A stretch of DNA of 64,000 bases from a virus (lineage: Duplodnaviria; Caudoviricetes): positions 32,303-96,302 of the IMG/VR virus record IMGVR_UViG_3300017911_002158; one strand, written 5' to 3'. Positions 31,039-60,346 of the stretch are shown piece by piece. Each line of letters starts with the position of its first letter. Positions within the stretch are counted from its first letter, which is position 1. A program made the translations under genes and the position numbers. The notes under the pieces were generated by a model, which searched no databases, was not told where the DNA came from, and saw nothing but the letters and a program-made list of their open reading frames with translations.

Positions 31039-31074
31039 TTGACGATTCAAGATTCGATGCTAAACTTCCGATAT
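31039..31074 (+). promoter_or_regulatory. Composite sigma70/sigma28-like promoter
   Basis: TTGACG-16-TAAACT overlapping TCAAG-15-TCCGATAT. Confidence 0.6.
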
Positions 31075-31107
31075 AGAAAACAGACCTTTACTTTGGAGAT
31101 TGAAAAA

Positions 31108-31260
31108 ATGGAATTGGAAATTGTGACCGTTTACGTTTCGGATTGCTGCGGTGCATATCTTGATGATGCCCACGTTCAACATGGCATCTGCCACGATTGC
31201 GGTGAGCATTGCGAAATTATCACCGAAGAATATCCTGCCACCCCCGTTTGTGGGGGGTGA
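31108..31260 (+). CDS. Small Cys-rich (zinc-binding) protein
   Basis: RBS GGAG; SDCCGA...CHDCGEHC. Confidence 0.6.
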   Translation: MELEIVTVYVSDCCGAYLDDAHVQHGICHDCGEHCEIITEEYPATPVCGG

Positions 31261-31309
31261 AAATAGAATAGACTGCCGATAGACTAGACTAGTTCGCCAC
31301 CACCATAGG

Positions 31310-31858
31310 ATGAAAAAAATGTTCACGCTTACCGATCTAGCAGAAATCAAAACGGAAATTTTCGGAGACCGTCAAGAACTGTACAGCGTAGAAAAAAATG
31401 CAGTCAGTTTCGGATTGTCTCTTTTGAGCAATCTCGACCGGGGAACCGCTTGCGAAAAATACTTGTGTCGCACAATGAACGCCCACGGAATCGACGCCAC
31501 CCATATGGGGGGTTCGGGCAATAGTAACGATATGTCCCTCTATGTAGGGGGTCGCATAGTCCGGGGTGAGAGCAAGTCTAGTCTGTTAGGCCCGCAGTCA
31601 GGGAAGTACTACTTTATAGGGGTCAAGCCAGAATTGTTTGACATTCTGTTTTTCTGCTTTGTTCACCCCACCAAAGGGGTAGTCGTCAAAACCGCTAGTG
31701 CAAAGCATATTCGGCAATGGGTGGCAGAATACAATCCAACCAACAAAACGAAAGACGGCGGCCCAGCATCCTACGATATATACTTCCGGGGTGACATGAC
31801 AAACAGCAAAATCCCCACAATCGAATGGGATCCCGCTGGAGAGGGGGTCAAGATGTAG
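31310..31858 (+). CDS. PD-(D/E)xK restriction-endonuclease-like protein
   Basis: G..CE helix, ND, ESK catalytic-type spacing. Confidence 0.55.
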   Translation: MKKMFTLTDLAEIKTEIFGDRQELYSVEKNAVSFGLSLLSNLDRGTACEKYLCRTMNAHGIDATHMGGSGNSNDMSLYVGGRIVRGESKSSLLGPQSGKYYFIGVKPELFDILFFCFVHPTKGVVVKTASAKHIRQWVAEYNPTNKTKDGGPASYDIYFRGDMTNSKIPTIEWDPAGEGVKM

Positions 31859-31927
31859 TCCCCTAGTCGGGGGGTTGACAAGAAAAAAAAATTGCTAGAC
31901 TTTGGATATAAGAAAGAGAGAAAGAAA

Positions 31928-32131
31928 ATGAAAACGATTGAAATTTCACCAAGTTACGTTGACTATCAAAACTACTTCCACAAAATGAGTGACGAGTTGC
32001 TAACATTGTGGATCGAAGTTGCAGAGCGTAGGCTGACTTGCTATCGTCGGAAATCTGACTTGCTACGGGTTGCATTGGGCATCCGTGCTGCGAAAAGTGT
32101 TCAGCGTTTACGAGAAAGGAATTGGGAGTGA
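31928..32131 (+). CDS. Hypothetical early protein
   Basis: ORF with purine-rich leader. Confidence 0.5.
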   Translation: MKTIEISPSYVDYQNYFHKMSDELLTLWIEVAERRLTCYRRKSDLLRVALGIRAAKSVQRLRERNWE

Positions 32132-32213
32132 TCATCTTGACCGTTGCTGTTTCGTTTGCTATGCTGTTCTGCGGGTTCGCCGCTCTCTATCTCACCCTAT
32201 AAGGAAAACCACA

Positions 32214-32504
32214 ATGAATACCGAAAAACTCATGCAACAATACCCGATTCTCACTGACGCTTGGAATCAGTGTACCCTAGTCTGGAAGGGTATTGAGCAG
32301 AACGGGAACCTTCACAAGTTCAACCGAAAGACTTTGAGAAAAATTGTAAAGGCTAACCGCTCTAGTGTCGATAAAAGGCTAGTGGGTGGGAATGACAACA
32401 TGATTGAAAAGGTAGGAAAGCCTGGATCCCCTGAAAGGGTGGTTGCGTTGGCTGCTCAATATGCTAGACTCAGTGAAAGTGAATCGTCACCCTTTGGAGA
32501 ATAA
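32214..32504 (+). CDS. Hypothetical early protein
   Basis: sigma70 promoter at 32137-32165, RBS AAGGA. Confidence 0.55.
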   Translation: MNTEKLMQQYPILTDAWNQCTLVWKGIEQNGNLHKFNRKTLRKIVKANRSSVDKRLVGGNDNMIEKVGKPGSPERVVALAAQYARLSESESSPFGE

Positions 32505-32610
32505 GACCATGAAAGAATCAGATCAGGAATTGTTGTTGATTGTGATTGTGTGTTGTGTTATTGTTGTATCTGTGCTTTGGAACTATACCCCTATCTGCTA
32601 AGGTGATGGA

Positions 32611-32847
32611 ATGACAACCTACGAAAAAATGACAACGCGAGAACTTGACGCTTGGATCCGGGAAGGTGGAAAAGACTTGTGCGATAATGCTCAAACGTAC
32701 ACTCCGGCAAAGTATAGGCTGGTGGCCCATATGGTACGCTCTGCCGTTCGTGAGAAGTTGCGACGGGTTCGCCATGCTGATTGGCTGGAGCGGGAATACG
32801 CTTGGGAAACTGAACGGGCGATCAGGGGTGGTACTGGATGGAGTTAA
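32611..32847 (+). CDS. Hypothetical early protein
   Basis: 78 aa with AAGGTGA RBS. Confidence 0.55.
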   Translation: MTTYEKMTTRELDAWIREGGKDLCDNAQTYTPAKYRLVAHMVRSAVREKLRRVRHADWLEREYAWETERAIRGGTGWS

Positions 32848-32941
32848 TCCCCCATCGGAGGGGAAAAACGTTTTACCCCACCTATAAGGGGGTTGCCCCC
32901 TTGTCTTACCTAACCCTTCGGGTTAAATTATGGAAACAGCC

Positions 32942-32957
32942 AGCAAAAACCGTGCCA
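32942..32957 (-). promoter_or_regulatory. sigma54 consensus site, antisense to early genes
   Basis: Reverse complement TGGCACGGTTTTTGCT. Confidence 0.55.
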
Positions 32958-32990
32958 AAAAAATTTTGGTTTTTCAGATTTTTTTTTTGC

Positions 32991-33027
32991 TTGACAACTA
33001 AAGTTCCGTATGGTAAAATGCCGATAT
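32991..33027 (+). promoter_or_regulatory. Composite sigma70/sigma28-like promoter
   Basis: TTGACA-17-TAAAAT overlapping TAAAG-16-GCCGATAT. Confidence 0.8.
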
Positions 33028-33056
33028 AAGAAGTAAGAAAGAAAAGGAGAAAGAAA

Positions 33057-33284
33057 ATGATGTTCATGAGCAAGACTGAGATTCAAGACCATATCCAAGA
33101 TCGTACCGGAAATTGGTATGATGAGTTGGTGAACATGGGTATGGTAAGTGATGAGTTGTTGAGTGAGGCCCTTGCCAATGATGGCGAGTTGCAGATTGGC
33201 TATGATTTTGGTACGCTCAATATCGACAATGAGGGATACGTTGTTGATTGGGAGCCGTTGAACGATGCTTGGAATGAGGATTGA
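33057..33284 (+). CDS. Acidic hypothetical protein
   Basis: Strong RBS AAGGAG, D/E-rich. Confidence 0.65.
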   Translation: MMFMSKTEIQDHIQDRTGNWYDELVNMGMVSDELLSEALANDGELQIGYDFGTLNIDNEGYVVDWEPLNDAWNED

Positions 33285-33388
33285 AAATGAAAAAATCAAA
33301 ACTTGACAATGAAGGCGTGATGCGTGGGCATTATGCTATCTTTAGTGAGTATGACTTGGACGAGTTTTGTCTTTAGGAGTTTGGTAGA

Positions 33389-33649
33389 ATGACAACGCAA
33401 ACATTGAAAAACCATATTCGATCAGGCCGATATGCTTGGCCCGGAGGATACCCGAAGTATTTTGTAATGAACGACGGCGAGGCCATGAGTTTCGACGCTG
33501 TGCTAGAAAACTTCCGTTTGGTTTTGGATTCTGTGAAGCACAAGCGGAATGATGGTTGGCGGGCGGTTGCCTGTGATATCAACTGGGAAGATGAGAATCT
33601 GTATTGTTGTGATAGTGGTGAGAAGATTGAAGTAGCCTACGGAGAATAA
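33389..33649 (+). CDS. Phage hypothetical protein (YAWPGGYP motif)
   Basis: RBS AGGAG; 86 aa. Confidence 0.7.
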   Translation: MTTQTLKNHIRSGRYAWPGGYPKYFVMNDGEAMSFDAVLENFRLVLDSVKHKRNDGWRAVACDINWEDENLYCCDSGEKIEVAYGE

Positions 33650-33799
33650 AGATGAAAGAAAAACTACAAGACGAGATAATCACATACTTTGGAGTTTACG
33701 AAAACATGATACCGTTCGTCTATACTGATGAACAACACCAGAAGTTCATAGACGATATTTGCCAAATAGTTGTAGACGCATACAAAAAAGAGGTTGTAA

Positions 33800-33934
33800 G
33801 TGACTGAGTATGATGAGGGATATGAGGATGGATACCATGATGCTTGGGCTGAACTTGAGGCATGGTATGGTATAGATGATGAAGGTTGGGATTGGTATGT
33901 AGTTGATGAGGATGAGTATGAGACCGTTGATTGA
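33800..33934 (+). CDS. Very acidic microprotein (44 aa)
   Basis: GAGG RBS, GTG start, TEYDEGYEDGYHDAW...DEDEYETVD. Confidence 0.5.
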   Translation: MTEYDEGYEDGYHDAWAELEAWYGIDDEGWDWYVVDEDEYETVD

Positions 33935-34455
33935 TGAGGGGCCTTGGCTTGATGAATATGGTTGGATGTTATCGGTATGTTATCATATTGTTTTTATGGT
34001 AATGTTTACGAAGGTAATGTTTAAAGGGTGGAAGTAATCCCCCGTGAGTGGGGAAAAATGATTTATACCCCTGATAGGGGGTTGTACCACCCAAACTGGG
34101 CGGTTAAATTTTATGAAAACAGCCAGCCAAAATCAAGCCCAAAATTTTTATTTTCCTGTAAAGTATCTGGGGTGGATTGTCGATATATAAAGTATTGGCA
34201 AGGATAACCCACGGAGAAAAAAGATGTTGACACTCTACACGATTTTTGGTATGTTTGTTGGTTTCGAGGGATACGATAACGGCAAAGTTTACTTTGGGAT
34301 TTATACCCCCCAATATGAGTATGGGTATGTGATTACGCAGAATGAAATTTATCTGGACACAATTTTAGAAAAATCTAAAGATTAGGGGTTGACTTGGACG
34401 ATCCAAGGAGTATAATTCGGGCATGACACGTAACCAACACCACGGAGGATTGAAG

Positions 34456-34638
34456 ATGGATGAAATCAACACTGCTCTCTTGATTGCTGCTCTTGAGGCT
34501 GAAGGAACTATTGAGCCTTGCGACGATATCAATGCCCATCCTCTTGACTGGATGGATGCTACTGGTGTAGACTTGATCGACGATTACTTCAAGGATAACG
34601 ACCCGCTTTACGCTCTACTGCTTGAGGAGGCTAACTGA
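34456..34638 (+). CDS. Acidic hypothetical protein
   Basis: GGAGG RBS, promoter at 34376-34416. Confidence 0.6.
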   Translation: MDEINTALLIAALEAEGTIEPCDDINAHPLDWMDATGVDLIDDYFKDNDPLYALLLEEAN

Positions 34639-34853
34639 TGACACCTAGCGAGAATATTTACAATTCGGACTATGATGAAATTGACGGACTTGTTGACGTT
34701 GAAGGTTATTGTGACGAGATGATGGAAGGAGTGTACGATTACCACGAGGATGATTATTACGATGATAGCATGGATGGGGATTTTGATTCGGCCATGCGTG
34801 ATTGTGGATTCGGAACTGATGAGGACTATGGTTACTATGGAGAGGATTATTGA
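34638..34853 (+). CDS. Very acidic Tyr/Asp-rich protein
   Basis: DGDFDSAMRDCGFGTDEDYG; coupled to the upstream gene. Confidence 0.65.
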   Translation: MTPSENIYNSDYDEIDGLVDVEGYCDEMMEGVYDYHEDDYYDDSMDGDFDSAMRDCGFGTDEDYGYYGEDY

Positions 34854-35350
34854 TGAGACAATATAACTGCTACGATATAAAAACTGTTGACAATCAAAAT
34901 CACTACGGTACTTGCTCAGTAATTGTGCCAACTATTGACCTTAGTGAAGCAGTTGATCGACAGGAAAATCTGGCCGCTATCTCTGGTGTGTTGGAAAGTA
35001 TTGTGGGCGAGGTTGATAGTTTTAGTTATGAGGAGGTACTATAATGATTCAACTAGACCCTGCTAGTTTGGCGATAGGATATGCTGCTGGTACACTGTTG
35101 TGCTGGTACTTGAATCAAACTCTAAACGCTAAGGAGAGCGAATATGAGCGAGAAGATGACGGAGCGACAGATAAAGACTTTATACATTATAAGAACAGCG
35201 TTTATGGCTGGAATTATCCTTACGATAATAATACATCTGCTAGAAGGTAATGCCACGATTGCAGGGTTTGGTCCGATGTAGTACTTATGGGGGGTTGGAA
35301 AACCATTTTCCCCACCTATGGGGGATATGCGATTTTTTTATTTTTTTTGC

Positions 35351-35387
35351 TTGACAGACTCAAGTTCGGCTGGTAGAATGTCGATAT
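35351..35387 (+). promoter_or_regulatory. Composite sigma70/sigma28-like promoter
   Basis: TTGACA-17-TAGAAT overlapping TCAAG-15-GTCGATAT. Confidence 0.75.
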
Positions 35388-35464
35388 AGTTAGTAGGGAA
35401 AGCAACCACACGGGTGTCTTCCCTATGGTAGAATGTTAGTAGGTTTAGTTTCGCTTCGGAGAAA

Positions 35465-35854
35465 ATGAAAATGGAAAACGTGATTATGATTGCTGGTTTC
35501 TTGGCTGTTAGTGCTTTGGTTTTGGTTATGTTTGGTGTGTATGCCGTCTATGGTGGTAGTCATGCCGAACTTTGCAACGCTAAACCCGGTCAGGTATTCA
35601 ACTTTGAGTATCTTCAGCCGCTGAATGGCGAACGCAAGCGTGTGCTTGCTAAAGTTCTTGAGCGACCAGTTCACTTGGACGATCATACTATCGCTAGCAT
35701 GAACGCTAGAAGTGCCTATCGTCGAAATGATCCTAAGTTTGAGCGTACTCATCATCTGGTAACGTGTCAAACTGCCGATGGTAATATCCGACAGTTCTAC
35801 TGTGAACGTGTCAAGAACTGCCGAAAGCCACTACTTGGCTCTCTGGTTGCATAA
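35465..35854 (+). CDS. Membrane-anchored hypothetical protein
   Basis: N-terminal hydrophobic helix, RBS GGAG. Confidence 0.65.
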   Translation: MKMENVIMIAGFLAVSALVLVMFGVYAVYGGSHAELCNAKPGQVFNFEYLQPLNGERKRVLAKVLERPVHLDDHTIASMNARSAYRRNDPKFERTHHLVTCQTADGNIRQFYCERVKNCRKPLLGSLVA

Positions 35855-35880
35855 CTCTCTCCGTGGTGGTGTTGTCGAAA

Positions 35881-35918
35881 GCCCCGTCACTCAGCAATGG
35901 GTGGCGGGGTTTTCTTTT
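35881..35918 (+). terminator. Intrinsic terminator
   Basis: GCCCCGTCACTCA-gcaa-TGGGTGGCGGGGT plus T tract. Confidence 0.85.
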
Positions 35919-36122
35919 ATACTTATTTGGTGGGGGTAAAACCATTTTTTTGCCACCAATGGGGGGTTGTACCACCCGAACTGACCAGTTTGGCATTATG
36001 GTAAAGCCAGCCAAAATCTAGCAAATTCTGTGCCGAATATTTTTTTTATTTTTTCTGGATTTTTTACTTGACGGCTGACGATAATATGATATACTGGAGA
36101 GACAACCACGGAGAACAATACC

Positions 36123-36830: not shown

Positions 36831-36997
36831 GGAGTTTACTATGTTCAAAGTAGTCAAAGACGAGAATGTTATATCATACTGGGAGTGTGAAGATTGTCAT
36901 GACAAAGTTGGCATCACGCCCGACTGGTATGAACAGAATGGCACACCAGTGTGTGTTGAATGTGACCGGGATATGTTATACGGCTGGACGGAGGTGA

Positions 36998-37228: not shown

Positions 37229-37284
37229 TATAAAAAGCCATTTACCCTACTATTGGGGGATGAGGTATTCACCGCAAAAAATTC

Positions 37285-37324
37285 TAAAGTTTTCTCTTGA
37301 CAGCGACGATAATAATGATATACT
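37285..37324 (+). promoter_or_regulatory. Composite promoter driving the tRNA-like RNA
   Basis: TAAAG-15-GACGATAA overlapping TTGACA-16-TATACT. Confidence 0.75.
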
Positions 37325-37442: not shown

Positions 37443-37785
37443 CCGTACAACAATTGTCTATACAGTATATTTTGGAGAGCATGATGAATAAAGAACAACA
37501 AATAAAAACAATACTCAACTACCTGAATAGTAAGATGAGTGCTATGAGCAAACCCGAAACAGAAAAGGTCAAGAAAATCCTGGAGGATGACGATATTAGT
37601 CTACAGGAGGTAGTAGAATGGTATATCGACTATGTGCGTTCGCATTGATCTTTTGTAGTGGTTGTGTGAGTACCAGCAGGGTTTCTCTATTTTGCAACAA
37701 AACAATAGACCTTGACAAACGCCCGCTAGAGGGTACAATGGACGTTGGCATCCGATTGGAACTGTTTAGGAATTGGAAGTAGAAT

Positions 37786-38040: not shown

Positions 38041-38378
38041 GTACGGCAAGATAAAAACTAAAGTAAAGAAACCTTGGGAGTTAGCCCGTGGACACAACAG
38101 CCATCGTTCTGGTTCTGGTAGTCATGATAACAGGCCTCGCAGAATTCGCACCAGAATGGATGTTCGGAGACGAGCATTAGCAGAATATTGCTAGCCAGAA
38201 AAACCTTTTATCCTTCTGTTGGGGGGGTGACACACCCAAACTGACCAGTTGAAATTTATGAAAACAGCCAGCGAAAAATTCAAGATTATGCTCTTGACAG
38301 GACGATACTATATGGTAGAATGATAGGACAAGCAACAAGCACTGTGCAAGTTGCAACTTTGGTTTAGACGATTGGAGA

Positions 38379-38676: not shown

Positions 38677-38748
38677 GGCCCCATAGTTCAACGGATAGAA
38701 CAGCGGTCTTCTAAACCGTAGATAGAGGTTCGATTCCTCTTGGGGCTA
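38677..38748 (+). tRNA. tRNA-Arg(TCT)
   Basis: Cloverleaf GGCCCCA/TGGGGCT, anticodon loop CT-TCT-AA, GGTTCGATTCC T-arm; no encoded CCA. Confidence 0.93.
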
Positions 38749-39508: not shown

Positions 39509-39549
39509 TAAAGAATTATGCTTGACAGGGACGATAAGTATGGTATACT
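39509..39549 (+). promoter_or_regulatory. Composite sigma70/sigma28-like promoter
   Basis: TAAAG-16-GACGATAA overlapping TTGACA-16-TATACT. Confidence 0.8.
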
Positions 39550-39588: not shown

Positions 39589-40536
39589 ATGCCTGCTAAT
39601 GTTGAAACTATGTTCTACACTGGTGCTACCCCTTGGCACGGTCTTGGTGAAAAGTTGGAGCAGGCTCCGACGATCAGCGAGGCCATTGAGGCGAGTGGGT
39701 TGAATTGGGAAGTTGGAACCAAGGATCTGGTGACCGTTGATGGTCAGTCGGTTCCTGCAAGGGCTACCTATCGCAAGAGCGACAATAGTATTCTGGGGGT
39801 TGTCGGGCCTCGATATGTCCCGCTCCAGAACAAGGATGCTTTTGAATGGTTCCAGCCGTTCGTTGATGCTGGCGAGTGCAGCCTGCATACTGGTGGATCG
39901 CTAAGTGACGGTCAGAAGGTCTGGGTTCTTGCTCAGTTGAACCGTGACCCTAGCGAGATTGTGTCTGGTGATGAGGTGCAGAAGTTCATCCTTCTGTCAA
40001 ACAGTCACGATGGCACTACCGCTATCCGTGTAGGCTATACCCCGATTCGGGTTGTGTGTGTCAATACCTTGGCTTTTGCTCACTCCCACAAGGAGAGCAA
40101 TCTGCTGAGAATCCGACATACTCGTAGCAGCAAGACTGCCCTAGATAATGTCCGTGACATCATGGACAATATCAACGCTCAGTTTGAGGCTACTGCTGAA
40201 CAGTATCGGTTCCTCGCTAGTCGAGACTTCAATCAGGCTGACGTACAGAAGTATGTCAAGGTTCTGCTTGGAGTTGACAAGAAGGCTCCAGAGGACATCA
40301 AGACTCGGACGCAGAATATCCTGACCGAGATTCTTGCTACCATCGAAGGGCCAAAGCAGAGTATGCCCGGAGTACGGGGTACTTGGTGGGCTGCCTACAA
40401 CGGCTTCAACGAGTATCTCAATTACACCAAGGGACGGAATACCAATAACCGTCTGGAAAGCCTCTGGTTCGGCCAGAATGGCACTGATAATAACAAGGCG
40501 TTGCAACTAGCGACAGAGTTCGCCAACGCCGTATAA
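39589..40536 (+). CDS. DUF932-family phage/plasmid protein
   Basis: PWHGLG, LGVVGPRY.PLQN, NSHDG, TPIRVVCVNTL, GTWWAAYNGFNEY. Confidence 0.9.
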   Translation: MPANVETMFYTGATPWHGLGEKLEQAPTISEAIEASGLNWEVGTKDLVTVDGQSVPARATYRKSDNSILGVVGPRYVPLQNKDAFEWFQPFVDAGECSLHTGGSLSDGQKVWVLAQLNRDPSEIVSGDEVQKFILLSNSHDGTTAIRVGYTPIRVVCVNTLAFAHSHKESNLLRIRHTRSSKTALDNVRDIMDNINAQFEATAEQYRFLASRDFNQADVQKYVKVLLGVDKKAPEDIKTRTQNILTEILATIEGPKQSMPGVRGTWWAAYNGFNEYLNYTKGRNTNNRLESLWFGQNGTDNNKALQLATEFANAV

Positions 40537-40599: not shown

Positions 40600-40792
40600 A
40601 TTGGCACAAAAAGTGTTTTACCCCCACAATCATACTACTAATATAATTATGTACCACCTAAACAAACCCATTCGGACTTTGTAAGATAGTCAGCAAAATT
40701 AGTGGCCATTTGGAAAAATTAAAGAATGTACTTGACAGGTGACGATATGTATTGTATACTGGGATGAGTAAGACGAAACCCTAAAGGAGAAA

Positions 40793-41639: not shown

Positions 41640-43415
41640 ATTTGTATTACCTAATATATTAAGGTCGTGACAATGTGGACAGCCAGTAAAACTGGTCTAT
41701 TAAATTCATTATGTATTATCCAAACTAATCCTTTCGCCTGATAATAGATAGTCAGTCAAATCTTACGGTCAGTAGTATTGGTTAGGGATATACTATTGTA
41801 GCATGTAGTCTAGTAGAGTCAAGGGCCAGTATATTTATTATGCAGGAAAGAGTATTAGTATTACCCAAAGTAATAGGTGAACGCCAATATTAGATAGCCA
41901 GTAAAAATTAATAGTATAGTCTTATTGAACTCAAGCCCCCTAAATAACCTCTTAACCCCTCTGCATAACTAGTAGTCAGAATTCTAGAAAGTGTCAAGGT
42001 GAAAAAATTATAAAAAAATTCTAGACCATGAAACTTGCATCTTTAGGCCCAGTGGATACTATAGGTCAGGGAGTCAGTAGTAGTATGTGGTATGCGATTA
42101 AATTAGATAGTAGTATTGATTGTAAGAAAATTTGTACTAGTATACAAAAGAACCTGTTCGAGAAATTTCTCAAAGAAAATATCCCACTAGATGGTAAAAT
42201 TTTATATATGGAGATTAAAGACCCAGTAGATTCATCTGCACCAATAGAATCACTGGAACATAAAAAACCCAATATTATCGAGAGTTAATAAGGTTTTTAC
42301 TACTACTAGTATACAATATATCAAGGCCCAGTAAAGATTCTACCATATTTATTATCAAGACTATACATTAAATGAATATTTTTGCAATCTTTTGTAGAGA
42401 AATTCACCATATTTTATTCTTTTCTGCATAAAAATGCCCGTATTTCCCGTGTTTTTTTAATTTAGTCACTTATTTTGCGGCGACGAGGTAAAATCGGGAA
42501 TAAATATAAATCCCCACCAGAGAACTAGCAGTACCCTCTATTTCCCTATTGACTCTACTGTTACTGTTAGTTATACTAGTAGTAGGAAACTCTTAAAAAA
42601 TAGGGGAAAAATTATGTATAAGCCCATGCTTCTTACAGATCAAGAACTAAAATTACTACTAGAAATCATAGACTCTCATAAGGGTAATAATGGTCATAAT
42701 GCCACTAATATCCACCTAATTAAGCGTAGAATTACCCATTTGATTAATGCTAAAAAATAGGTAGAAAGTGTAATTAAGGAGAATTCCCCACTAATTAAAA
42801 AGAAATCAAACCTAATTGGGCAATAGTCCCACAGAAATCAAAATACGGTGCTTATATGTTCAATATAGTCTTATTGTGTATATGGTTATTGGTAAATTTA
42901 CTAATGATAGTATATGAGAGGAAAGCCTGTTATGAAAAAGACTATCATGGTTATGGCAACCATTACAATAGAAGGTGATGATCTCAATGCGGGATTTCTC
43001 AAGAGTATTTTGCAGAAGATAAGGAAGTGGTTTAAATACCAGCACAGGCTAGAGTCAGATACTTATATTGTTGCTAATGTGGAATTTAGTGATAGTTATA
43101 TTGAAATAGAAAGGTAGTCTAGTGGATATATTTGATATAGAAAGTCTAGTTTCTTATATAGAGGAAAATCACTATAATCCAATAGAAATGCTACCATCTT
43201 TTTCTACTAAAAAAATAGAAACCATATATAACAAAAATAACAAGTACAATGGTGAAGATGTAGTAGTTACGGATATTACTCTGGAAAATTCCGATATAAG
43301 AATTACTCTAAATGAAGGTGGTACTTGGTCAGTCGATTTCTGGAATAAATAGTAAAGTCTACCCTTGACTCAGGACGATAGTGGTGGTATACTGATAGGA
43401 ACCTTGGAGGAAACC

Positions 43416-45798: not shown

Positions 45799-46284
45799 AT
45801 GAATTACATTAGATGTATTGTCAGAACTTTGTTCTATTGCTCTTTATTAGTATTCTCTTGTGTTTCTTTATTATTAATTAATTACCCAGAATACTACGGT
45901 ATAAGATATTTTGTCGCAAAACAGTCTATTAAAAATATATTCTATCCAACCACTTTTGAAGAATTTAAACCAACATTAAAATACTATTCCTATGTTAAAT
46001 TAAGCAGATGGAACGATCATCATATAATAGATATTATTGAGGATGCTTTTGCTTTTGAGTATGAATACTGGTGCAAATATACTTATATTGACAAATACGG
46101 TAATCGTGGAATTAATATTGATAGAGTTATTCATAATTGGAAACCTTGGGAGTATCATTATTTAGAGCATGATAAAGACTATATTACTCCAGAACATAAT
46201 AGGGCTATGGTATTAAGGAAAGAGTGGATGGATAATTATAGGGACATGGAAATAGAACAGCATAGGCGATATCAAATCGACTAA
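45799..46284 (+). CDS. Membrane-anchored WKPWEY protein A
   Basis: N-terminal TM segment; paralog of 49523-50080. Confidence 0.6.
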   Translation: MNYIRCIVRTLFYCSLLVFSCVSLLLINYPEYYGIRYFVAKQSIKNIFYPTTFEEFKPTLKYYSYVKLSRWNDHHIIDIIEDAFAFEYEYWCKYTYIDKYGNRGINIDRVIHNWKPWEYHYLEHDKDYITPEHNRAMVLRKEWMDNYRDMEIEQHRRYQID

Positions 46285-46542
46285 AGTTTTCTCTTGACTC
46301 CAGCCGATAAGGGTAGTATAATGGACAGTCTCACTACCCTAGTGTTGTTCATTTTGGTCTACACTTTACTTTGGCTTACGGATTTTAGCGATGAAATATA
46401 ATATTGGAGATGAAGTCTATTGGAATGATCCAGACGACAACATTCTTTCTGGGTATTATATTATTAAAGCAGTATCTTGCTATCTTCCTGTTGTTTATGT
46501 AATTGGTGAAGGAACAGAAGTTTTTGAGTGGGAGTTATCGTA

Positions 46543-48135: not shown

Positions 48136-48353
48136 ACGAAGAATTACCAGACGTTGAACCACCTTGGTTCAGTATGCCAACAGAAGGTGAATATAGTGAT
48201 GATCTTGAAGATGGTACTCCTTACGATATAGGGTACAAAGTAGACGAGGCTTATATGGAATAGCAAAACATTCAAGATTAGCCTTGACAATCCCGATAAC
48301 TATGGTATAATGAATTGCTGACAGCACATCAAAATCTTCACTAGGACTATAGA

Positions 48354-48587
48354 ATGAAAGACCGATTTGATCTTGAAAACGAAATTATGCGAACGGCTAA
48401 TTATGCTGATGATCTCCGCACTATTACAGAAAATATGATTAATGATTCTGTAGACGGTAATGTAAATGTTGATAAGTATTTTAATGCCATAGAAGGAGTT
48501 TCGTGTTTAATTGAAATGCATAGCAATAAAATGTTCGATACTATGAGCCAGTGTTTTAAACTTGATAACTATAAGGAGTCAGTATGA
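48354..48587 (+). CDS. Hypothetical protein
   Basis: Composite promoter at 48272-48311. Confidence 0.6.
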   Translation: MKDRFDLENEIMRTANYADDLRTITENMINDSVDGNVNVDKYFNAIEGVSCLIEMHSNKMFDTMSQCFKLDNYKESV

Positions 48588-52756: not shown

Positions 52757-53407
52757 ATGAATGTTAAACTAATTAGCGTGACTCCAGACGCAGAAAAACA
52801 CATGGCATATTGTGCTAGGGTGTCAAACCCGATGGGGCAGGATCGAGATGATTATGCTAAATTATTAAAATACTGCATTGATCATGGTCATTGGTCAATT
52901 TTTGAAATGGCAAATATGGTTCTTGAAATAAATACTACAAGAGGTATTGCAGCACAAATACTTCGTCATCGTAGTTTTAGTTTTCAAGAGTTTAGTCAGA
53001 GATATGCAGATACAAACTTGCTGACAGAAGATATTCCTCCTATTGACATTCGTAGACAAGACGTTAAAAATAGACAGAACAGTATAGATGACTTTGAAGA
53101 AAGTGACAAAAAGACTTTCAAAGAAATAATTCATAATCATTTTATGGCTAGTCAACACTTGTATCAAACATTACTTGACGGAGGTGTTGCAAAAGAATGT
53201 GCAAGATTTGTTCTACCTTTAGCAACTCCTACAAGAATGTATATGAATGGGACTATAAGATCGTGGATACATTACATTAATCTTAGGGAAAGTAATGGAA
53301 CACAAAAAGAACATATGAATATTGCTAAAGAGTGCAAGAAGATATTTTGCGAACAATTTCCAACAATAGCGGAAGCACTAGGTGGAGCAGAAAAAGATTG
53401 GAGTTGA
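52757..53407 (+). CDS. thyX: FAD-dependent thymidylate synthase
   Basis: HWSIFE, QILRHRSFSFQEFSQRY, KECARFVLP. Confidence 0.97.
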   Translation: MNVKLISVTPDAEKHMAYCARVSNPMGQDRDDYAKLLKYCIDHGHWSIFEMANMVLEINTTRGIAAQILRHRSFSFQEFSQRYADTNLLTEDIPPIDIRRQDVKNRQNSIDDFEESDKKTFKEIIHNHFMASQHLYQTLLDGGVAKECARFVLPLATPTRMYMNGTIRSWIHYINLRESNGTQKEHMNIAKECKKIFCEQFPTIAEALGGAEKDWS

Positions 53408-53452
53408 CAATCTGGTTTTGCCGATATATAATTGGAACACAGGAGCAAAACT

Positions 53453-54367
53453 ATGACTAAACTCGGACTCTGCTGCATATCTCTCGACCTGCAAGAACTT
53501 GACGAACCACTCAAGTTCCAGACTATGACATATAAACGGTTTAGCCAACTAGACCGTAGCGAAGCATTGTCTATATTAGGCGACCGTATCTTAAATAATA
53601 TGCTTGTGACAAATGCTACTATTCAGCATTGTGCAGATAACGATATGTGCTATCGTATTAGTAGTGATCTATTCCCACTAATGACATATCAAGCAGCAAA
53701 TATTGAGTGGGAAGAACTACCTAACTACGATCAGATTGATGAATCATTTGATCTCATTTACGAGACTATACAATCTACCAATATTCGTATATCTGCCCAT
53801 CCTAGTGAGTTCAATGTATTAGCATCTACTAATACTGATGCAGTTGACAGAACCGTTACAGAACTAAATTTTTACAGTAGTTTCCTTGACAGGATTGGTT
53901 GTCCTGCCGATTATAATTCGCCCATGAATTTACATATCAATAATCGACAAGGAAGTAACGATGAGGTTGTTAACAGATTTATGCGGAATTACGATAGACT
54001 TGACGATAATTGCCGCAATCGTCTTGTTATCGAAAATGATGATAAACTTAATTGCTGGTCTGTTAAGCAGTTAATAGAAGATTTCTACCCCAAGACCCAT
54101 ATACCTATAACCTTCGACTATCTGCATCATGCTTGTCATCCTGACGGTTGGACAGAGCAACAGGCTATAAGATTTTGTTATTTGACTTGGCCTACAAAAC
54201 CCCTGTTTCATTATAGCGAAAATATACCCGATCATCCAAACCCACGCAAACACGCAGATTATGCGTCAAAACCTTTCAATACTTATGGATTAGACTTTGA
54301 TGTAGATATGGAACTAAAAATGAAAGACAAAGCCATAGCAGCATACCTAGAAGGTGTATTAGTATGA
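53453..54367 (+). CDS. uvsE: UV damage endonuclease
   Basis: LGLCC, YRISSDLFP, SAHP, LVIENDD, FDYLHH, HYSE, HADY, MELKMKD. Confidence 0.93.
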   Translation: MTKLGLCCISLDLQELDEPLKFQTMTYKRFSQLDRSEALSILGDRILNNMLVTNATIQHCADNDMCYRISSDLFPLMTYQAANIEWEELPNYDQIDESFDLIYETIQSTNIRISAHPSEFNVLASTNTDAVDRTVTELNFYSSFLDRIGCPADYNSPMNLHINNRQGSNDEVVNRFMRNYDRLDDNCRNRLVIENDDKLNCWSVKQLIEDFYPKTHIPITFDYLHHACHPDGWTEQQAIRFCYLTWPTKPLFHYSENIPDHPNPRKHADYASKPFNTYGLDFDVDMELKMKDKAIAAYLEGVLV

Positions 54368-54677: not shown

Positions 54678-55118
54678 ATGAAGATAATAAAGAGGGCGAT
54701 CAAACTTAGTTACGATAGATTTAAACCCAATCCTTATCAACGAAGATATCATTTTGCTATTGCTTTTGATGTAAATAAGCCAATTGCTATTGCACAAAAT
54801 AATCCAATAAAAATAAACCATAAGGCTTACAAAATAGGACAAAGATTTAATATCTCACAATATAAGGAATATCCATACTCTCATGCTGAATCTCATCTTG
54901 TATCTAAATTACTTGATACATATAATACCATTCGTTCTGATTGGTCACTTGTTGTACTCCGTATTAATAGACAGGGCAAAATACTACTAAGTAAACCTTG
55001 CGATAATTGTCAAAGAATTTTAGATTCTGTAGGATTAAAAAAAGTATATTGGAGCATAGATAGAAATACTTTTGCATTTAACAATAAGATTATTTCTTTA
55101 AGGAATATTTATGAGTAA
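54678..55118 (+). CDS. Cytidine/dCMP deaminase-like zinc protein
   Basis: HAE and SKPCDNC motifs. Confidence 0.75.
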   Translation: MKIIKRAIKLSYDRFKPNPYQRRYHFAIAFDVNKPIAIAQNNPIKINHKAYKIGQRFNISQYKEYPYSHAESHLVSKLLDTYNTIRSDWSLVVLRINRQGKILLSKPCDNCQRILDSVGLKKVYWSIDRNTFAFNNKIISLRNIYE

Positions 55119-56028
55119 AATATTAGTCACTGGTGGAACTGGATTGCTAGGTAGTGCATTAAAACAATTTTTACATGATGCTATTTTTGTATCATCAGTA
55201 GACTGTAATCTTTATGATTTTGACGATACATTTAGAATGTTAAAACAATACAAGCCCAATACTGTTATTCATTTAGCGGCAGAGGTCGGTGGTTTGTTTA
55301 AGAACATGAACGACAATGAGGGTATGCTAAACAGAAACCTTATTATGAACACAAACATAATAAAATCATGCTTATATGAGAATGTAACAAAATTTATTGG
55401 CTGTTTATCTACTTGTATATTTCCTGCTACAGTTCAGTATCCAATCACAGAGGATATGCTACATGATGGAGAACCGCATGAATCAAACTATGGATATGCT
55501 TATGCAAAAAGAATGATGGAGGTTCAATGTAGATCAATTAGAGATCAATACGGATACTCATATAACTGCATCATCCCTACTAATATTTATGGCACACATG
55601 ATAATTATAGCCTTAAAGATGGTCATGTAATACCTTCATTAATTCATAAAGCATATTTAGCTAAAAAAAATGATACCGATTTCTCTGTTGCTGGAAGCGG
55701 AAAACCATTAAGACAATTTATATACGCTAAAGATTTATCAAATATTATATCAAAATTAATTGTTTTGGAATCATTGAAAAGCCCTATAATTATAGCAGAT
55801 AAAATAGAATATAGTATTTATGAAGTATCATATATGATATCTGAATATTTTGGTATTTCTGATCGTCTTGTGTTTGATACCAATTTATCAGATGGTCAAT
55901 ATAAAAAAACAGCAGATAATTCACGTCTTATTGAGACTATAGGTGATTTTACTTTTACGCCATTAAAACAGGGTCTTAAAGAAACTATAGATTGGTTTGT
56001 TGAAAATTACGACAAAGCCAGAAAATAA
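55111..56028 (+). CDS. fcl: GDP-L-fucose synthase
   Basis: GGTGLLG, HLAAEVGG, LSTCIFP, YAYAKR, PTNIYG.HDN, GSGKPLRQF. Confidence 0.92.
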   Translation: MSKILVTGGTGLLGSALKQFLHDAIFVSSVDCNLYDFDDTFRMLKQYKPNTVIHLAAEVGGLFKNMNDNEGMLNRNLIMNTNIIKSCLYENVTKFIGCLSTCIFPATVQYPITEDMLHDGEPHESNYGYAYAKRMMEVQCRSIRDQYGYSYNCIIPTNIYGTHDNYSLKDGHVIPSLIHKAYLAKKNDTDFSVAGSGKPLRQFIYAKDLSNIISKLIVLESLKSPIIIADKIEYSIYEVSYMISEYFGISDRLVFDTNLSDGQYKKTADNSRLIETIGDFTFTPLKQGLKETIDWFVENYDKARK

Positions 56029-56100
56029 TTGAAGTAATGTCTTGACAAACGCCGATACTAGTGATATACTAGAGGAAATCAATCTTTCACAGGAGACTAA

Positions 56101-56511
56101 ATGATGCCGAAGGGCAAGAAAACTTGCGACAATTGCGGAACCATGACAGGCCCAAGGGCATATATGTGTTCTAATTGCAATACTCCTTTTACTTTTGCTG
56201 TTCAAAGCAAGGAAAGGAAAAATACTAGAGTTATTCGTAACTTTGATTGGCGTGAACTAGAAACCGGAGACAAGATTAAAACTAGTGGAGGCCCATATTA
56301 TGTTAAGGGTGGAGAATTTATCCCTATGGGTTATAGAGGTAGATTTACCGTAGTAAGTTTAGATGATAATGGTATTGTTGCCTATAGCGATAAGGGTGGA
56401 TATTGCCATATCTATATGGGTAAAGATATTCAATGCCCAGAAACAAAGGTATGGAAAACAAAACATAAGTTGGCTAAACTAAAGCCTAAAACTCCAAAGA
56501 TTAAGGTGTAA
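56101..56511 (+). CDS. Zinc-ribbon hypothetical protein
   Basis: CDNCG...CSNC; composite promoter at 56030-56070. Confidence 0.65.
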   Translation: MMPKGKKTCDNCGTMTGPRAYMCSNCNTPFTFAVQSKERKNTRVIRNFDWRELETGDKIKTSGGPYYVKGGEFIPMGYRGRFTVVSLDDNGIVAYSDKGGYCHIYMGKDIQCPETKVWKTKHKLAKLKPKTPKIKV

Positions 56512-56542
56512 AATATAATAATCTATTTTCATTGGAGATATT

Positions 56543-56824
56543 ATGCCCCCTAAAAAACACAAAGATAAAGACAGCGTAAGGACTATTGAAACGCCAAGTG
56601 CTTTTGGCAGTCATTCTAGTATGCTGGTAGATATTGATGAAATTGCAAAAAATCATAATGTTCCATCAGATAAGGTTATATGTCAAGACGAAAGAGGATA
56701 TTATGTAACCTATAAAAATAGGATTGATAATGGTCTGGCTGACCCTTGCAGATATGCTTGTCCATTATGCAGGTTTAGTAACTTAAACATTGTCTTTGCT
56801 AGTTGGGATATCGTCAAAAAATAA
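56543..56824 (+). CDS. Hypothetical protein
   Basis: GGAG RBS, GGTGTA motif upstream. Confidence 0.55.
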   Translation: MPPKKHKDKDSVRTIETPSAFGSHSSMLVDIDEIAKNHNVPSDKVICQDERGYYVTYKNRIDNGLADPCRYACPLCRFSNLNIVFASWDIVKK

Positions 56825-56940
56825 CTAAAGACTTGACAACCAACTGCCGATAGATTATACTAATACAGTACGGGTTTGGTTTTTTGTGGCGAATCAGACC
56901 CTTTGGTTTTAGGATGCCACGCTTTAAAAGGGTTTATTTT

Positions 56941-57171
56941 ATGGCAACTTCGACTATGACGAAGCAGGATCGTGTGGTTAACTATCTTACCAAGGGACGA
57001 ACCTTGAGTCAGGATAGTGCTTATAGTATGTTTGAAGTAGGTAATCTTCGGGCTACTATTAGCGACGTTAAGCCGATGCTTCATACGAAGGGTTTTGATG
57101 TTGTGCGTACAACTGGCAGGCACGGCGAAACTCGCTATGGTGTTACTCGTCGCCAGACTAGACGACGATAA
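56941..57171 (+). CDS. Small winged-HTH DNA-binding protein
   Basis: QDRVVNYLTKGRTLSQDSAYSMFEVGNLRATISDVK. Confidence 0.65.
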   Translation: MATSTMTKQDRVVNYLTKGRTLSQDSAYSMFEVGNLRATISDVKPMLHTKGFDVVRTTGRHGETRYGVTRRQTRRR

Positions 57172-57207
57172 TTTAAATGGTCTTAGACTAATAATCTAAG
57201 GCCAAAA

Positions 57208-57279
57208 GCCCACATAGTATAATGGTTATTACAGTTGATTTGTAATCATCGGATGGGGGTTCGATTCCCTCTGCGGGCT
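57208..57279 (+). tRNA. tRNA-Thr(TGT)
   Basis: Cloverleaf, loop TT-TGT-AA; one mismatch each in the acceptor and anticodon stems. Confidence 0.78.
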
Positions 57280-57280
57280 T

Positions 57281-57351
57281 TACGGGGTGGTGTAACGGTA
57301 GCACAAAGGATTTTGGTTCCTTTTGTCGGGGTTCAAATCCCTGCCCCGTAG
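57281..57351 (+). tRNA. tRNA-Gln(TTG)
   Basis: TACGGGG/CCCCGTA, loop TT-TTG-GT. Confidence 0.9.
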
Positions 57352-57354
57352 TTT

Positions 57355-57426
57355 TGCCCTGTAGTTCAACGGTAGAACAAGCGGCTGTTAACCGCTGGGT
57401 TATAGGTTCAAATCCTATCGGGGCAG
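57355..57426 (+). tRNA. tRNA-Asn(GTT)
   Basis: TGCCCTG/CGGGGCA, loop CT-GTT-AA. Confidence 0.92.
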
Positions 57427-57486
57427 TTAGACTAAAGGAAACACTTGACAGTTGACGATAAGTATGTTAGAATGAGATAACAACAC

Positions 57487-57559
57487 GGGGCGTTCATCTA
57501 ATGGTCAAAGATGCTACTCTTATAAGGTAGTCAAGAAAGTTCGATTCTTTCACGCCCTA
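57487..57559 (+). tRNA. tRNA-Ile(TAT)
   Basis: GGGGCGT/ACGCCCT, CTACT-CT-TAT-AA-GGTAG; own composite promoter at 57433-57473. Confidence 0.85.
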
Positions 57560-57564
57560 CTTAT

Positions 57565-57638
57565 GCCCTCATAACTCAATTGGTTAGAGTAGCGGTCTTT
57601 TAAACCGTAAGTTCTAGGTTCGAGTCCTAGTGGGGGTA
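57565..57638 (+). tRNA. tRNA-Lys(TTT)
   Basis: GCCCTCA/TGGGGGT, loop CT-TTT-AA. Confidence 0.92.
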
Positions 57639-57840
57639 CTGTTAATGTTCGATAGTTTATAACTAGGAGTTTTTAAATGAGTGATTTTGAGTGGGAATAT
57701 TTAGATCATTCAGAACACACTGATGATACAGAAGATACTTTTATTAATGATGAAAATGAATATCTTTATGATAGTCATAATAATCTAACAGAATGGCACT
57801 GTTATTACTCAGATATCGCTCCAGAAGAAATTGAATATTA

Positions 57841-58308
57841 ATGCAAGAATTAATCAACAGAAGAACAGAAAACGGACAATGGATGCAGGGTTGTGAACAC
57901 ACAACATCTCTTCTCAACAAAAAGGTTAGAAATAAAGTAATATTCGATGCAATAGAATCTCTAATTAAAATAGAAAAACAGTTCGATACTATTGCTTGTT
58001 GTGGTACAAGCGGATTGCTGGTTGTTCCTCAAATCTCAGAAATTCTCAAGAAAAATATTCTGGTTGTCAGGAAAAGAAATGAGCAAAGATATTCTCCTTT
58101 TGCTTATGAAGGGGCAGTTCCAGAAAACTATATTATTGTTGATGATTTAATTTGTAGCGGCAAAACTGTAAAGCATATCATTAAGACTATTAACGAAGAT
58201 TGTACTAGAGCAAAATGCTTAGGTGTTTATGTCTTTTTTAAAGATAAGTGCGCATACAAAGCAGACAATTCTTTGTGCAAAAAAGATCTAGGGATAGAAT
58301 ACTTATGA
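57841..58308 (+). CDS. Type I phosphoribosyltransferase
   Basis: YIIVDDLICSGKT PRPP-binding motif. Confidence 0.85.
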   Translation: MQELINRRTENGQWMQGCEHTTSLLNKKVRNKVIFDAIESLIKIEKQFDTIACCGTSGLLVVPQISEILKKNILVVRKRNEQRYSPFAYEGAVPENYIIVDDLICSGKTVKHIIKTINEDCTRAKCLGVYVFFKDKCAYKADNSLCKKDLGIEYL

Positions 58309-59420
58309 AAATTAACAATGATCCTAAATTAGATTTTGATGACGTATTACTGGTTCCGCAAAGAAGCAGGGCAGCATCAAGAAAAGAAGTGGAATTAAAT
58401 AGAAATTTTTCTTTCTATCATTCTAATAGGGTGTGGAAAGGGATTCCTATTTTTGCTGCAAATATGGATACTACTGGTACTGTTGATATATCTAATACTT
58501 TAATGAGATATCAAATGCCAACCTGTCTTCATAAGCACTATTCAAAAGAACAATATCCAGACCTTATCTGGAATCAAGACCTTCAATGGTTTAGTATGGG
58601 TATTAAACAGGATGATCTTGACAAACTCACCTATTGCTGTAAAACAAATCATAGGATTCCTAATATTTGCATTGATGTTGCCAATGGATATACAGACGAT
58701 TTTGTAAATTTTTGTGCTAAAGTTAGAAAAGAACTTGGAGATGAACCAGTTATTATGGCTGGTAATGTATGTACTCCAGAAATGGTTCAAGAAATTATTC
58801 TGCATGGTGGCGTAGACATTGTTAAAGTAGGAATTGGCCCCGGTAGTGCTTGTACCACCAGATTAAAAACAGGTTGTGGCTACCCACAATTATCTGCCAT
58901 TATTGAATGTAGTCATGCTGCTCATGGATTAAAAAGTGGTAAAGGTAAATTAGGGCTGGTTTGTGCTGATGGCGGTTGTAGAACTCCATCAGATATTTGC
59001 AAGGCTTTTGCTGCGGGTGCAGATTTTGTTATGCTTGGCGGGATGCTTGCTGGTACAGAAGAATGTGAGGGTGAGTGGCAGTACGAATATAAGTGTTCTG
59101 TCAGAAATAAAGATGGTTCAGAATGGTGGCAAAGTAGTGACCCCGGTTATCCAACTGACAAAAGAAAAGTTTCATTAAAATTTTATGGTATGTCATCTCA
59201 TAATGCTCAGAATAAATATGGTGGTGTAAAAGATTATAGAGCAAGTGAAGGGAGGACTAAAACTATTCCCTACAAAGGTAGTGCTTCTGTTGTTGTTGAA
59301 GATATTCTTGGTGGATTAAGAAGTGCATGTGCCTATATTGGATCAACTTGTTTAAAAGATATGAATAAGTGTGCAGAATTTAATGTAGTAAATAGAACTC
59401 ATTTTGATCAGAGTTTATAG
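58305..59420 (+). CDS. guaC: GMP reductase
   Basis: KLDFDDVLL.P, ANMDTTGT, IDVANGY, KVGIGPGSACTTR, GYPQLSA, YRASEG. Confidence 0.95.
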   Translation: MKINNDPKLDFDDVLLVPQRSRAASRKEVELNRNFSFYHSNRVWKGIPIFAANMDTTGTVDISNTLMRYQMPTCLHKHYSKEQYPDLIWNQDLQWFSMGIKQDDLDKLTYCCKTNHRIPNICIDVANGYTDDFVNFCAKVRKELGDEPVIMAGNVCTPEMVQEIILHGGVDIVKVGIGPGSACTTRLKTGCGYPQLSAIIECSHAAHGLKSGKGKLGLVCADGGCRTPSDICKAFAAGADFVMLGGMLAGTEECEGEWQYEYKCSVRNKDGSEWWQSSDPGYPTDKRKVSLKFYGMSSHNAQNKYGGVKDYRASEGRTKTIPYKGSASVVVEDILGGLRSACAYIGSTCLKDMNKCAEFNVVNRTHFDQSL

Positions 59421-59760
59421 GGGGCGTAAAGGTTTCGACAGGTAAATAGAAGTGTAGATTGCATCGACTGGTTGATCTAAAGGCCAGTTTAAAAATAGAT
59501 CAAAGTTTCAATTGCCGATACTTCTGTATTAGCACTCGCTGCTTAGTGAGAGGGGTTGCATAAACCTTTTTACCCAATTATGCTGACTCCGATAATCGGA
59601 TAGGGTTGTCCTACCTAAATTAAGAAGGTCGATGAGCGTAAGCGTTCTGACATTTGGAAAGACAAATAGTTTTGTCTATAGTATTAATAACAATAGACTA
59701 ACGATGTAGAAGTTTATATGTAATTTATACTGGACAGGGGTTCGACTCCCCTCGCCTCCA
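59420..59760 (+). ncRNA. ssrA: tmRNA, tag peptide (A)ADTSVLALAA at 59514-59546
   Basis: GGGGGCG/CGCCTCC acceptor stem with G3-U70, GGTTTCGAC D-region, GAC-AGGGGTTCGACTCCCCT T-arm, tag ORF ending LAA-stop. Confidence 0.95.
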
Positions 59761-59807
59761 CTTTTGCCGGAATGGTGTATCTAATCTAAAGAAAGGTTGG
59801 GTGCATT

Positions 59808-60071
59808 ATGTTAATAAAAAAATCTGTTGAGCATTTAGATCAAAATAATATGGGTTATTGGGAGCATTTGCGATTTGCTTCCTCTCATGGTATTAGGTGT
59901 ATCAAAGCGGGCGTTCTTTTAATCCTTCATTCTATCATCCCCGCTTTGTTCCCTAAAACTGGATCAATACTAGTAAATAAATTAAACAAAGATTTTACTG
60001 AACATAATGATTGGTTAATGTTAAAAGCTAAAATGGAAGTCTTTAAAAATATATACAAATCAAATGAGTGA
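59808..60071 (+). CDS. DUF6356-like protein
   Basis: HL....MGYWEHLRFA...ILHSIIPALF. Confidence 0.65.
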   Translation: MLIKKSVEHLDQNNMGYWEHLRFASSHGIRCIKAGVLLILHSIIPALFPKTGSILVNKLNKDFTEHNDWLMLKAKMEVFKNIYKSNE

Positions 60072-60346
60072 AAAAACACAAATAAAAATTCTACAACTAG
60101 AGTTAAGAAAACAAGAAGTTATTGCACAAAATCTCGAAAAGAAAATAGGTAGATACGAAAAGGCAAACAGTATCGTTAAGAATACTATTGCTCAACAGGA
60201 AATTGATGATATAAAAACAGAACTAGAAACAGCAAGACTACAAAAAGCAATTTTGTCATCAAAAATAGAATTGCTCAAAGACTAAAGATTCCCCTTGACA
60301 GCCGCCGATAGATAGGATATACTTGGGGAAACACAGGAGGACTACA

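Follow-up and report, generated by a model that had tools for sequence, protein, structure and literature searches.

A two-box element resembling sigma-28 promoters accompanies the early sigma-70-type promoters of a family of large uncultured phages

Most of the strong early promoters of an uncultured tailed virus (IMG/VR record IMGVR_UViG_3300017911_002158; Duplodnaviria, Caudoviricetes) carry, besides their housekeeping-type boxes, a second pair of boxes, TAAAG and CGATA. What is this second signal, and which factor might read it? We analyzed a stretch of 64,000 nucleotides (nt), here called the window, which corresponds to bases 32303-96302 of a 96.3-kilobase (kb) linear record with a CheckV completeness of 68%; coordinates are those of the window unless stated otherwise. 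The window has a G+C content of 36.8%. A 53-kb minus-strand late block holds the terminase gene (26334-28367), then a 707-amino-acid (aa) gene, further virion genes and giant open reading frames (ORFs) of up to 3208 aa. Rightward of about 31000, the plus strand carries many small genes, six transfer RNAs (tRNAs), a transfer-messenger RNA (tmRNA), ThyX, UvdE, a GMP-reductase-like gene, an epimerase and a DNA ligase. An earlier note on this DNA had described the second signal in front of these genes and compared it with the promoters of flagellar sigma factors. We find that the motif is strongly enriched, keeps a fixed geometry and orientation independently of TTGACA, and is conserved across a phage family. 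We infer that it probably serves an alternative RNA polymerase holoenzyme as a promoter; that its reader is a host sigma-28-type factor is a more tentative proposal.

The window holds 19 copies of the pattern T(A/C/G)AAG-N17/18-CGATA, against about 0.7 predicted by dinucleotide shuffles; 17 of the copies lie on the plus strand at 31047-60310. Counted by spacing, the N17 form was observed 8 times (0.32 expected) and the N18 form 11 times (0.40 expected), and neither count was reached in any of the 100 dinucleotide-preserving shuffles from which the expectation was taken. A histogram of TVAAG-to-CGATA spacings from 0 to 44 nt has a single spike, at 17 (8 matches) and 18 (9 matches), on the plus strand only. 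The earlier note had staked its claim on this spacing being enriched over shuffled sequence, and it is. The two-block motif discovery it proposed gave a similar answer: when all 5-mer pairs separated by 12-22 nt were counted blindly over the 96-kb genome, the top two dyads were TTGAC-N18-TATAC and, just behind it, TAAAG-N18-CGATA. All 17 sites listed in that note carry the motif, the second box at 34376 reading CGATC instead of CGATA, and its two copies with degenerate first boxes are real (TGGAT at 36056 and TGGAG at 53399, both with CGATA). One unlisted match, at 37569, lies inside a coding sequence. The description of the signal as genome-wide has to be given up: the motif is restricted to the early region and its plus strand, and a pattern scan of the genome did not find it in the 53-kb late block or at genome positions 1-9181.

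The sites, all on the plus strand, differ in how they are combined with sigma-70-type boxes. In layout A, TTGACA precedes the first box, with CGATA 3' of the sigma-70 -10 hexamer. This layout is found at 31047..31073 (TCAAG-N17-CGATA; TTGACG at 31039, 8 nt 5', with CGATA after the -10 box TAAACT; gene start 31108), 32999..33026 (TAAAG-N18-CGATA; TTGACA at 32991, -10 box TAAAAT; gene start 33057) and 35360..35386 (TCAAG-N17-CGATA; TTGACA at 35351). In layout B1, TTGACA lies 3' of the first box (+10..+14) and CGATA falls within the sigma-70 spacer. Two B1 sites have a degenerate box, 34376..34403 (TAAAG-N18-CGATC; TTGACT at 34389, +13) and 36056..36083 (TGGAT-N18-CGATA; TTGACG at 36068). The same layout is seen at 37285..37311 (TAAAGTTT...GACGATAA, N17; TTGACA at 37297, +12), at 38280..38307 (TCAAG-N18-CGATA; TTGACA at +14), 5' of the tRNA-Arg at 38677, and at 46282..46309 (TAAAGTTT...GCCGATAA, N18). 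TAAAG-N18-CGATA sites with this layout precede gene starts at 39589 (39509..39536), 40793 (40720..40747) and 43416 (43353..43380), and a TCAAG-N17-CGATA site at 48272..48298 precedes one at 48354. Further B1 sites are found at 56030..56057 (TGAAG-N18-GCCGATAC), at 57433..57460 (TAAAG-N18-GACGATAA), immediately 5' of tRNA-Ile and tRNA-Lys, and at 60283..60310 (TAAAG-N18-GCCGATAG), 5' of the ATP-dependent DNA ligase gene (60347-61642). Layout B2, with TTGACA at +7/8, is represented by 56826..56852 (TAAAG-N17-GCCGATAG; TTGACA at +7), 5' of the tRNA cluster. At 53399..53426 (TGGAG-N18-GCCGATAT, degenerate first box), TTGACA stands at +5, 5' of the UvdE-like gene that starts at 53453. Two sites have no TTGACA. 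That at 34159..34185 (TAAAG-N17-GTCGATAT) is intergenic and stands alone, with no sigma-70 boxes, 39 nt 5' of the ATG at 34224; that at 32347..32373 (TAAAG-N17-CGATA) lies inside a 96-aa ORF (32215-32505) and is probably a chance or internal match.

Several B-type promoters share a stretch, (A)G(T/C)CAGCGAAAAA, directly 5' of TAAAG or TCAAG (window 38255-38279, and L006, L009, L024 and G004 among related records), which may be a further upstream element. The tRNA-Ile (anticodon TAT; 57487-57560, plus strand) belongs to a five-tRNA cluster flanked on both sides by dual promoters.

As the earlier note had counted, 15 of the 17 listed sites overlap a TTGACN-16/17-TANNNT promoter, the exceptions being 32347 and 34159. 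These overlapping promoters, and those at both degenerate sites, match 9-11 of 12 sigma-70 consensus positions. About seven other good sigma-70-type promoters lack the motif, for example those at 37712, 38750, 42549 and 51476 and the sigma-gene promoter at 30677 (minus strand). Relative to TAAAG, TTGACA occupies three registers in the window, -9/-8, +7 and +12..+14. When sites from this genome were combined with those of more than ten related records, 84 in all, the picture was the same, with registers at -9..-7 (A), +7/8 (B2) and +10..+14 (B1) and a box-to-box gap of 17 in 36 sites and 18 in 48. TTGACA thus slides by about 22 bp relative to the boxes, while the distance between the boxes stays fixed, and all 84 sites are co-oriented with their genes. 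This bears out the proposal that the boxes form an independent bipartite signal. The bases between the boxes have an information content near zero, which argues for selection on the boxes and against their being recent copies.

The element is not peculiar to this genome. When 50,697 phage records were searched with nucleotide and sigma-protein queries, no close cultured relative turned up; the terminase shares only 24-27% identity with its counterparts in Bacillus and Microcystis phages. With the phage's own sigma protein (described below) as the query, 40 IMG/VR loci were retrieved, and the motif occurs on the early strand of these loci; altogether, more than 20 records of related uncultured phages, 50-238 kb long, contain the element. 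Forward and reverse matches in scans of whole records are markedly one-sided: 11/1 in G001 (160 kb, complete), 0/21 in G004 (166 kb, complete), 13/0 in G010 (175 kb), 23/1 in G016 (238 kb), 25/3 in G018 (223 kb), 18/1 in G021 (159 kb) and 1/22 in G023 (145 kb). A control in which the pattern was read backwards gave 0-5 matches. These counts make the element a trait of a large uncultured phage family, and it is retained in phages whose sigma proteins have diverged to 46-51% identity. We also looked for a host by way of metagenome-assembled genomes: eight related contigs were binned with Flavobacteriales, Alphaproteobacteria, archaea, Saprospiraceae and Lyngbya, assignments that contradict one another and were not used.

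Could the boxes have no function of their own? They might tune the sigma-70 promoters as upstream or spacer features, or be remnants of a duplicated promoter cassette. Such readings would suit the A-tracts upstream of TAAAG in layout B1 promoters and the promoters of one related locus, L033, which resemble recent copies of one another. Boxes that hold their distance to each other at every TTGACA register, enclose unconserved sequence and persist between phages with such diverged sigma proteins make this explanation very improbable.

A different possibility is that the pair is an operator, at which an early or middle phage protein binds both boxes, blocks the overlapping sigma-70 promoter and shuts off early genes. 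Early shut-off is common in lytic phages, and a protein bound to the boxes would occlude polymerase in all three registers. Overlap with a sigma-70-type promoter is seen at about 95% of sites, leaving only about 5% that stand alone. The rare stand-alone sites, however, lie in intergenic DNA directly 5' of genes that have no other promoter (34159 in the window, and others in G001, L004 and L020). A simple roadblock would not need the uniform orientation seen in 84 of 84 sites. Moreover, the boxes are asymmetric, lack the dyad symmetry of a repressor operator and tolerate a one-base change in spacing, and such tolerance in an asymmetric pair of fixed orientation is typical of sigma promoters. 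Together with the match to a sigma consensus over about 16 positions, set out below, this leaves an operator unlikely.

We compared the element with the promoters of sigma-28. Class-3 flagellar promoters are read by this factor, known as FliA in E. coli, SigD in Bacillus and WhiG in Streptomyces, and its specificity is strongly conserved across bacteria. Over all 84 sites, and including positions that the search did not fix, the extended consensus of the phage element is T(A/C)AAG(T/A)TT ... G-n-CGATA(A/T). The sigma-28 consensus is TAAAGTTT-n11-GCCGATAA, and with E. coli sigma-28, activity drops when the G of TAAAG is changed (PMC2859248). The first phage box agrees with the -35 element TAAA(G)(TTT): its second base is A in 54 sites, C in 25 and G in 5, and at the search-free positions after TAAAG the bases (T/A), T and T are favored. 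The second box agrees with the -10 element and its CGA core, with a G two bases 5' of CGATA in 72 of 84 sites and, also in 72 of 84, an A or T directly after it, both positions having been left free in the search. These agreements make up the 16 or so matching positions.

In our best explanation, a second, self-contained promoter is nested inside or beside the sigma-70-type early promoters. Its -35-like box would be T(A/C)AAG(T/A)TT and its -10-like box G-n-CGATA(A/T), 22-23 nt from start to start, and host RNA polymerase carrying a non-housekeeping sigma of sigma-28-like specificity would bind it. Transcription would start a few bases upstream (B1, B2) or downstream (A) of the sigma-70 start, so that nearly every early unit could be fired by either of two holoenzymes. 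That the element is a promoter of this kind we consider probable. The other part, a sigma-28-type factor of the host as the reader, falls somewhat short of an even chance, and so does the explanation taken whole, with a group-3 (FliA/SigD-type) host sigma. Reading by a host factor is helped by this wide conservation of sigma-28 specificity among bacteria and by G004, a complete genome with 21 sites and only one sigma.

Several observations weigh against this explanation. The spacer is longer than that of sigma-28 promoters, N17/N18 corresponding to n12/n13 instead of the canonical n11, and the spacing histogram has no N16 copy in this genome. The E. coli K-12 promoters of tar, motA, fliC and fliD are all TAAAG-N16-CGATA (n11; 4/4), so that by an E. 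coli-like standard more than half of the phage sites are 2 bp too long. The earlier note had equated the two spacings through a miscount: its TAAA-N15-GCCGATAA is TAAAG-N16-CGATA. Furthermore, TCAAG makes up 30% of first boxes. No phage is known to rely on sigma-28, and a literature search found no paper on sigma-28-type promoters in phages. The scarcity of stand-alone sites would suit a regulator of the sigma-70-type promoters as well. A point in favor of a host factor comes from a distant relative, G008:C1, whose sigma is 36% identical: the sigma and a third motif, GTGTAT (see below), are kept, and the TTGACA-type promoters and the two-box motif are both missing. The two-box motif thus tracks host-type promoters, though in a single case. 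We also looked for Bacteroidetes-type promoters (TAnnTTTG) in G008:C1 and found the signal too noisy to judge. Of the dual wiring to sigma-70 and flagellar sigma put forward earlier, the independent, oriented bipartite signal and its sigma-28-like boxes stand; a canonical spacer (it is 1-2 bp too long) and a genome-wide distribution do not.

The phage also encodes a sigma factor of its own (211 aa; 29873..30508, minus strand), which consists of sigma region 2, a conserved four-cysteine insert and a short helical C-terminal domain. It matches Sigma70_r2 with 26 bits, and the model of the sigma70-ECF (extracytoplasmic function) superfamily matched below its cut-off. The four cysteines, between region 2 and the C-terminal domain, are invariant among relatives of the protein. 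An AlphaFold model (predicted local distance difference test score, 74) superposes on ECF sigmas. The best Foldseek match was Mycobacterium tuberculosis SigH, with a probability of 0.96 and an E-value of 0.03, in a search whose E-values were weak. Alignment of region 2 with VIA-align gave Z-scores of 8.7 for SigH, 7.9 for T4 gp55 (root-mean-square deviation, 2.4 Å over 74 residues) and 7.6 for FliA, which are effectively tied, many other region-2 domains scoring alike. Neither profile searches nor a comparison of a C-terminal-half profile with PDB sequences detected a region-4 helix-turn-helix. Of the sigma-like genes, only this one was present in all the family members checked. Searches of G004, a complete genome, and of G000, G002 and G005 gave no second sigma. 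G001, the closest complete relative, carries a paralogue of the phage sigma plus an extra 200-aa sigma-70-family protein (L043:950-1552) with a strong region 4 (PF04545, 47.6 bits), which adjoins a ClpP-like gene; as a general reader of the element this protein was rejected, having no homologue in G000, G002, G004, G005 and G009. A profile for single-subunit RNA polymerase (PF00940) matched neither the phage nor the control genomes and is therefore uninformative.

A third kind of signal bears on what the phage sigma does. GTGTA(T/A)(A/T) occurs in every sizeable gap on the late strand (26333, 21016, 10217 and 7105), with about 0.16 occurrences expected by chance in some 680 nt of gaps. The minus-strand boxes are GGTGTAAAT at 26325..26333, between the terminase and the next gene; TGTGTATAC at 21008..21016, just 3' of the terminator hairpin that follows a 337-aa gene and kept in relatives; and GGTGTATAT at 10209..10217 and AGTGTAATT at 7097..7105, each in a 51-nt gap. 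About 30 relatives, including some with sigmas down to 31-36% identity, have GTGTAT at the same positions after the terminase and after the terminator of the 337-aa gene, and no conserved -35 box accompanies it in them. Judged by these positions, GTGTAT is a candidate late promoter class. The promoter of the sigma operon (TTGACT-N16-TATAAT; 30650..30677, minus strand) has GTGTAT in its spacer, as TTGACT-N4-GTGTAT...TATAAT, and neither TAAAG nor CGATA. Its layout is kept in nearly all relatives and also stands 5' of the sigma paralogue in G001. This dual TTGAC/GTGTAT promoter, a small ORF (61 aa; 30435-30620, minus strand) and the gene for the sigma with the cysteine insert form a conserved module, of which G001 has a whole second copy. 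GTGTAT in the sigma operon promoter looks like self-activation, and its presence there and in the late gaps connects the phage sigma with GTGTAT, not with TAAAG/CGATA.

These findings have to be set against the idea that the two-box element is a promoter read by a phage factor, either the phage's own sigma or a divergent second sigma or adaptor, as a "middle" class that would sustain early units after housekeeping-sigma shut-off. Among motif-bearing records of at least 90% completeness, 8 of 8 also encode the sigma, a co-occurrence that may reflect shared ancestry only. A non-canonical spacer argues for a non-canonical reader; the modeled fold of the phage sigma resembles two-domain ECF sigmas, some of whose promoters are similar, such as the PvdS box TAAAT-N16-CGT; and phage sigmas often escape profile searches. 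Yet ECF sigmas usually drive their own gene, a rule of thumb rather than proof, and both the sigma operon promoter and the late gaps have GTGTAT without TAAAG/CGATA, here as in about 30 relatives. The phage sigma also shows no region 4, and G008:C1 keeps it without the motif. The same motif goes with shorter sigmas (171-175 aa) that lack the cysteine insert in G014 and G023. As for the earlier note's alternative, a phage sigma with FliA-like specificity, a phage sigma does exist, but it is ECF-like, not FliA-like. A phage factor as the reader of the two-box element appears doubtful, and a host group-3 sigma is slightly favored over the phage sigma because the GTGTAT late promoters are a better match for the latter.

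If the element is a promoter, it would be a compact way to place one gene set under two holoenzymes, nested at several registers, and would provide a readable three-class code (sigma-70 type, TAAAG/CGATA and GTGTAT) for annotating gene timing in hundreds of uncultured phage genomes of 100-240 kb. In the broadest version of the proposal, large lytic phages of aquatic habitats, a widespread family, would have nearly all their early promoters wired to both the flagellar and the housekeeping sigma of the host, in a three-signal code of sigma-70, sigma-28-like and GTGTAT boxes with each alternative -10 box tucked into the sigma-70 spacer. We regard this version as rather unlikely as it stands. The arrangement would be logical for phages confined to swimming cells, perhaps through adsorption to flagella, since sigma-28 would then be guaranteed to be active; that infection could start in either motile or sessile hosts, as suggested earlier, is speculation. 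Reading by the host flagellar sigma would tie phage expression to host motility, which has not been described before, and would be the first phage transcription program built on sigma-28. Were the reader a phage factor, its specificity would be new, imitating sigma-28 but over a longer spacer.

Some other features of the region deserve mention. Short CCCC...GGGG palindromes form a run at 30750-30940, where the sigma operon and the first early promoter diverge, and more lie at 34040-34090. Directly 3' of the GMP-reductase-like gene is a phage-encoded, full-length, one-piece tmRNA gene (59420-59763, plus strand; Rfam RF00023, 110.7 bits). Its tag, read from the alignment, is ADTSVLALAA; the tag printed by ARAGORN appears to be mis-framed. 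The virion block includes the single 3208-aa ORF (genome 25625-35248; window 1-2946, minus strand), with adjoining ORFs of 2160, 1432 and 1278 aa.

Among known systems, ECF promoters (AAC-N16/17-CGT) share with the phage element a bipartite structure, an A-rich -35 box and an initial CG in the -10 box, but the phage spacing is about one base longer and the phage sigma gene lacks the two-box motif. T4 late promoters, TATAAATA without a -35 box and read by gp55, are a parallel for the late class only: the GTGTAT boxes are also short, lack a conserved -35 box and lie 3' of terminators, whereas their sequence differs and the phage sigma has an extra cysteine insert and C-terminal domain. T4 middle promoters pair a sigma-70 -10 box with a MotA box; in the SPO1 cascade, control passes from host sigma A to gp28 and then to gp33/34. 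As with the T4 early and middle promoters and the SPO1 cascade, our phage supplements its host-type early promoters, on the spot or close by, with another recognition signal; it likewise has a distinct late class, in this case GTGTAT, and encodes its own sigma. Unlike in T4 middle promoters, the second signal has its own -10-like box, located 5' or 3' of the sigma-70 boxes, and no MotA- or AsiA-like genes were identified in this phage. In place of a TAnnnT at a fixed distance, that box is GnCGATAw, and the position equivalent to T-7 is a T in about one-third of sites. The closest resemblance is to sigma-28 class-3 promoters. Since the n11 spacer, a defining feature of that class, is replaced by n12/n13, we call the element sigma-28-like and not a sigma-28 promoter; the frequent TCAAG and its being built into the phage's sigma-70 promoters also set it apart. 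Both are oriented, asymmetric pairs, and they share the two 8-mer boxes, the G of TAAAG, the G two bases 5' of CGA and the A/T tail.

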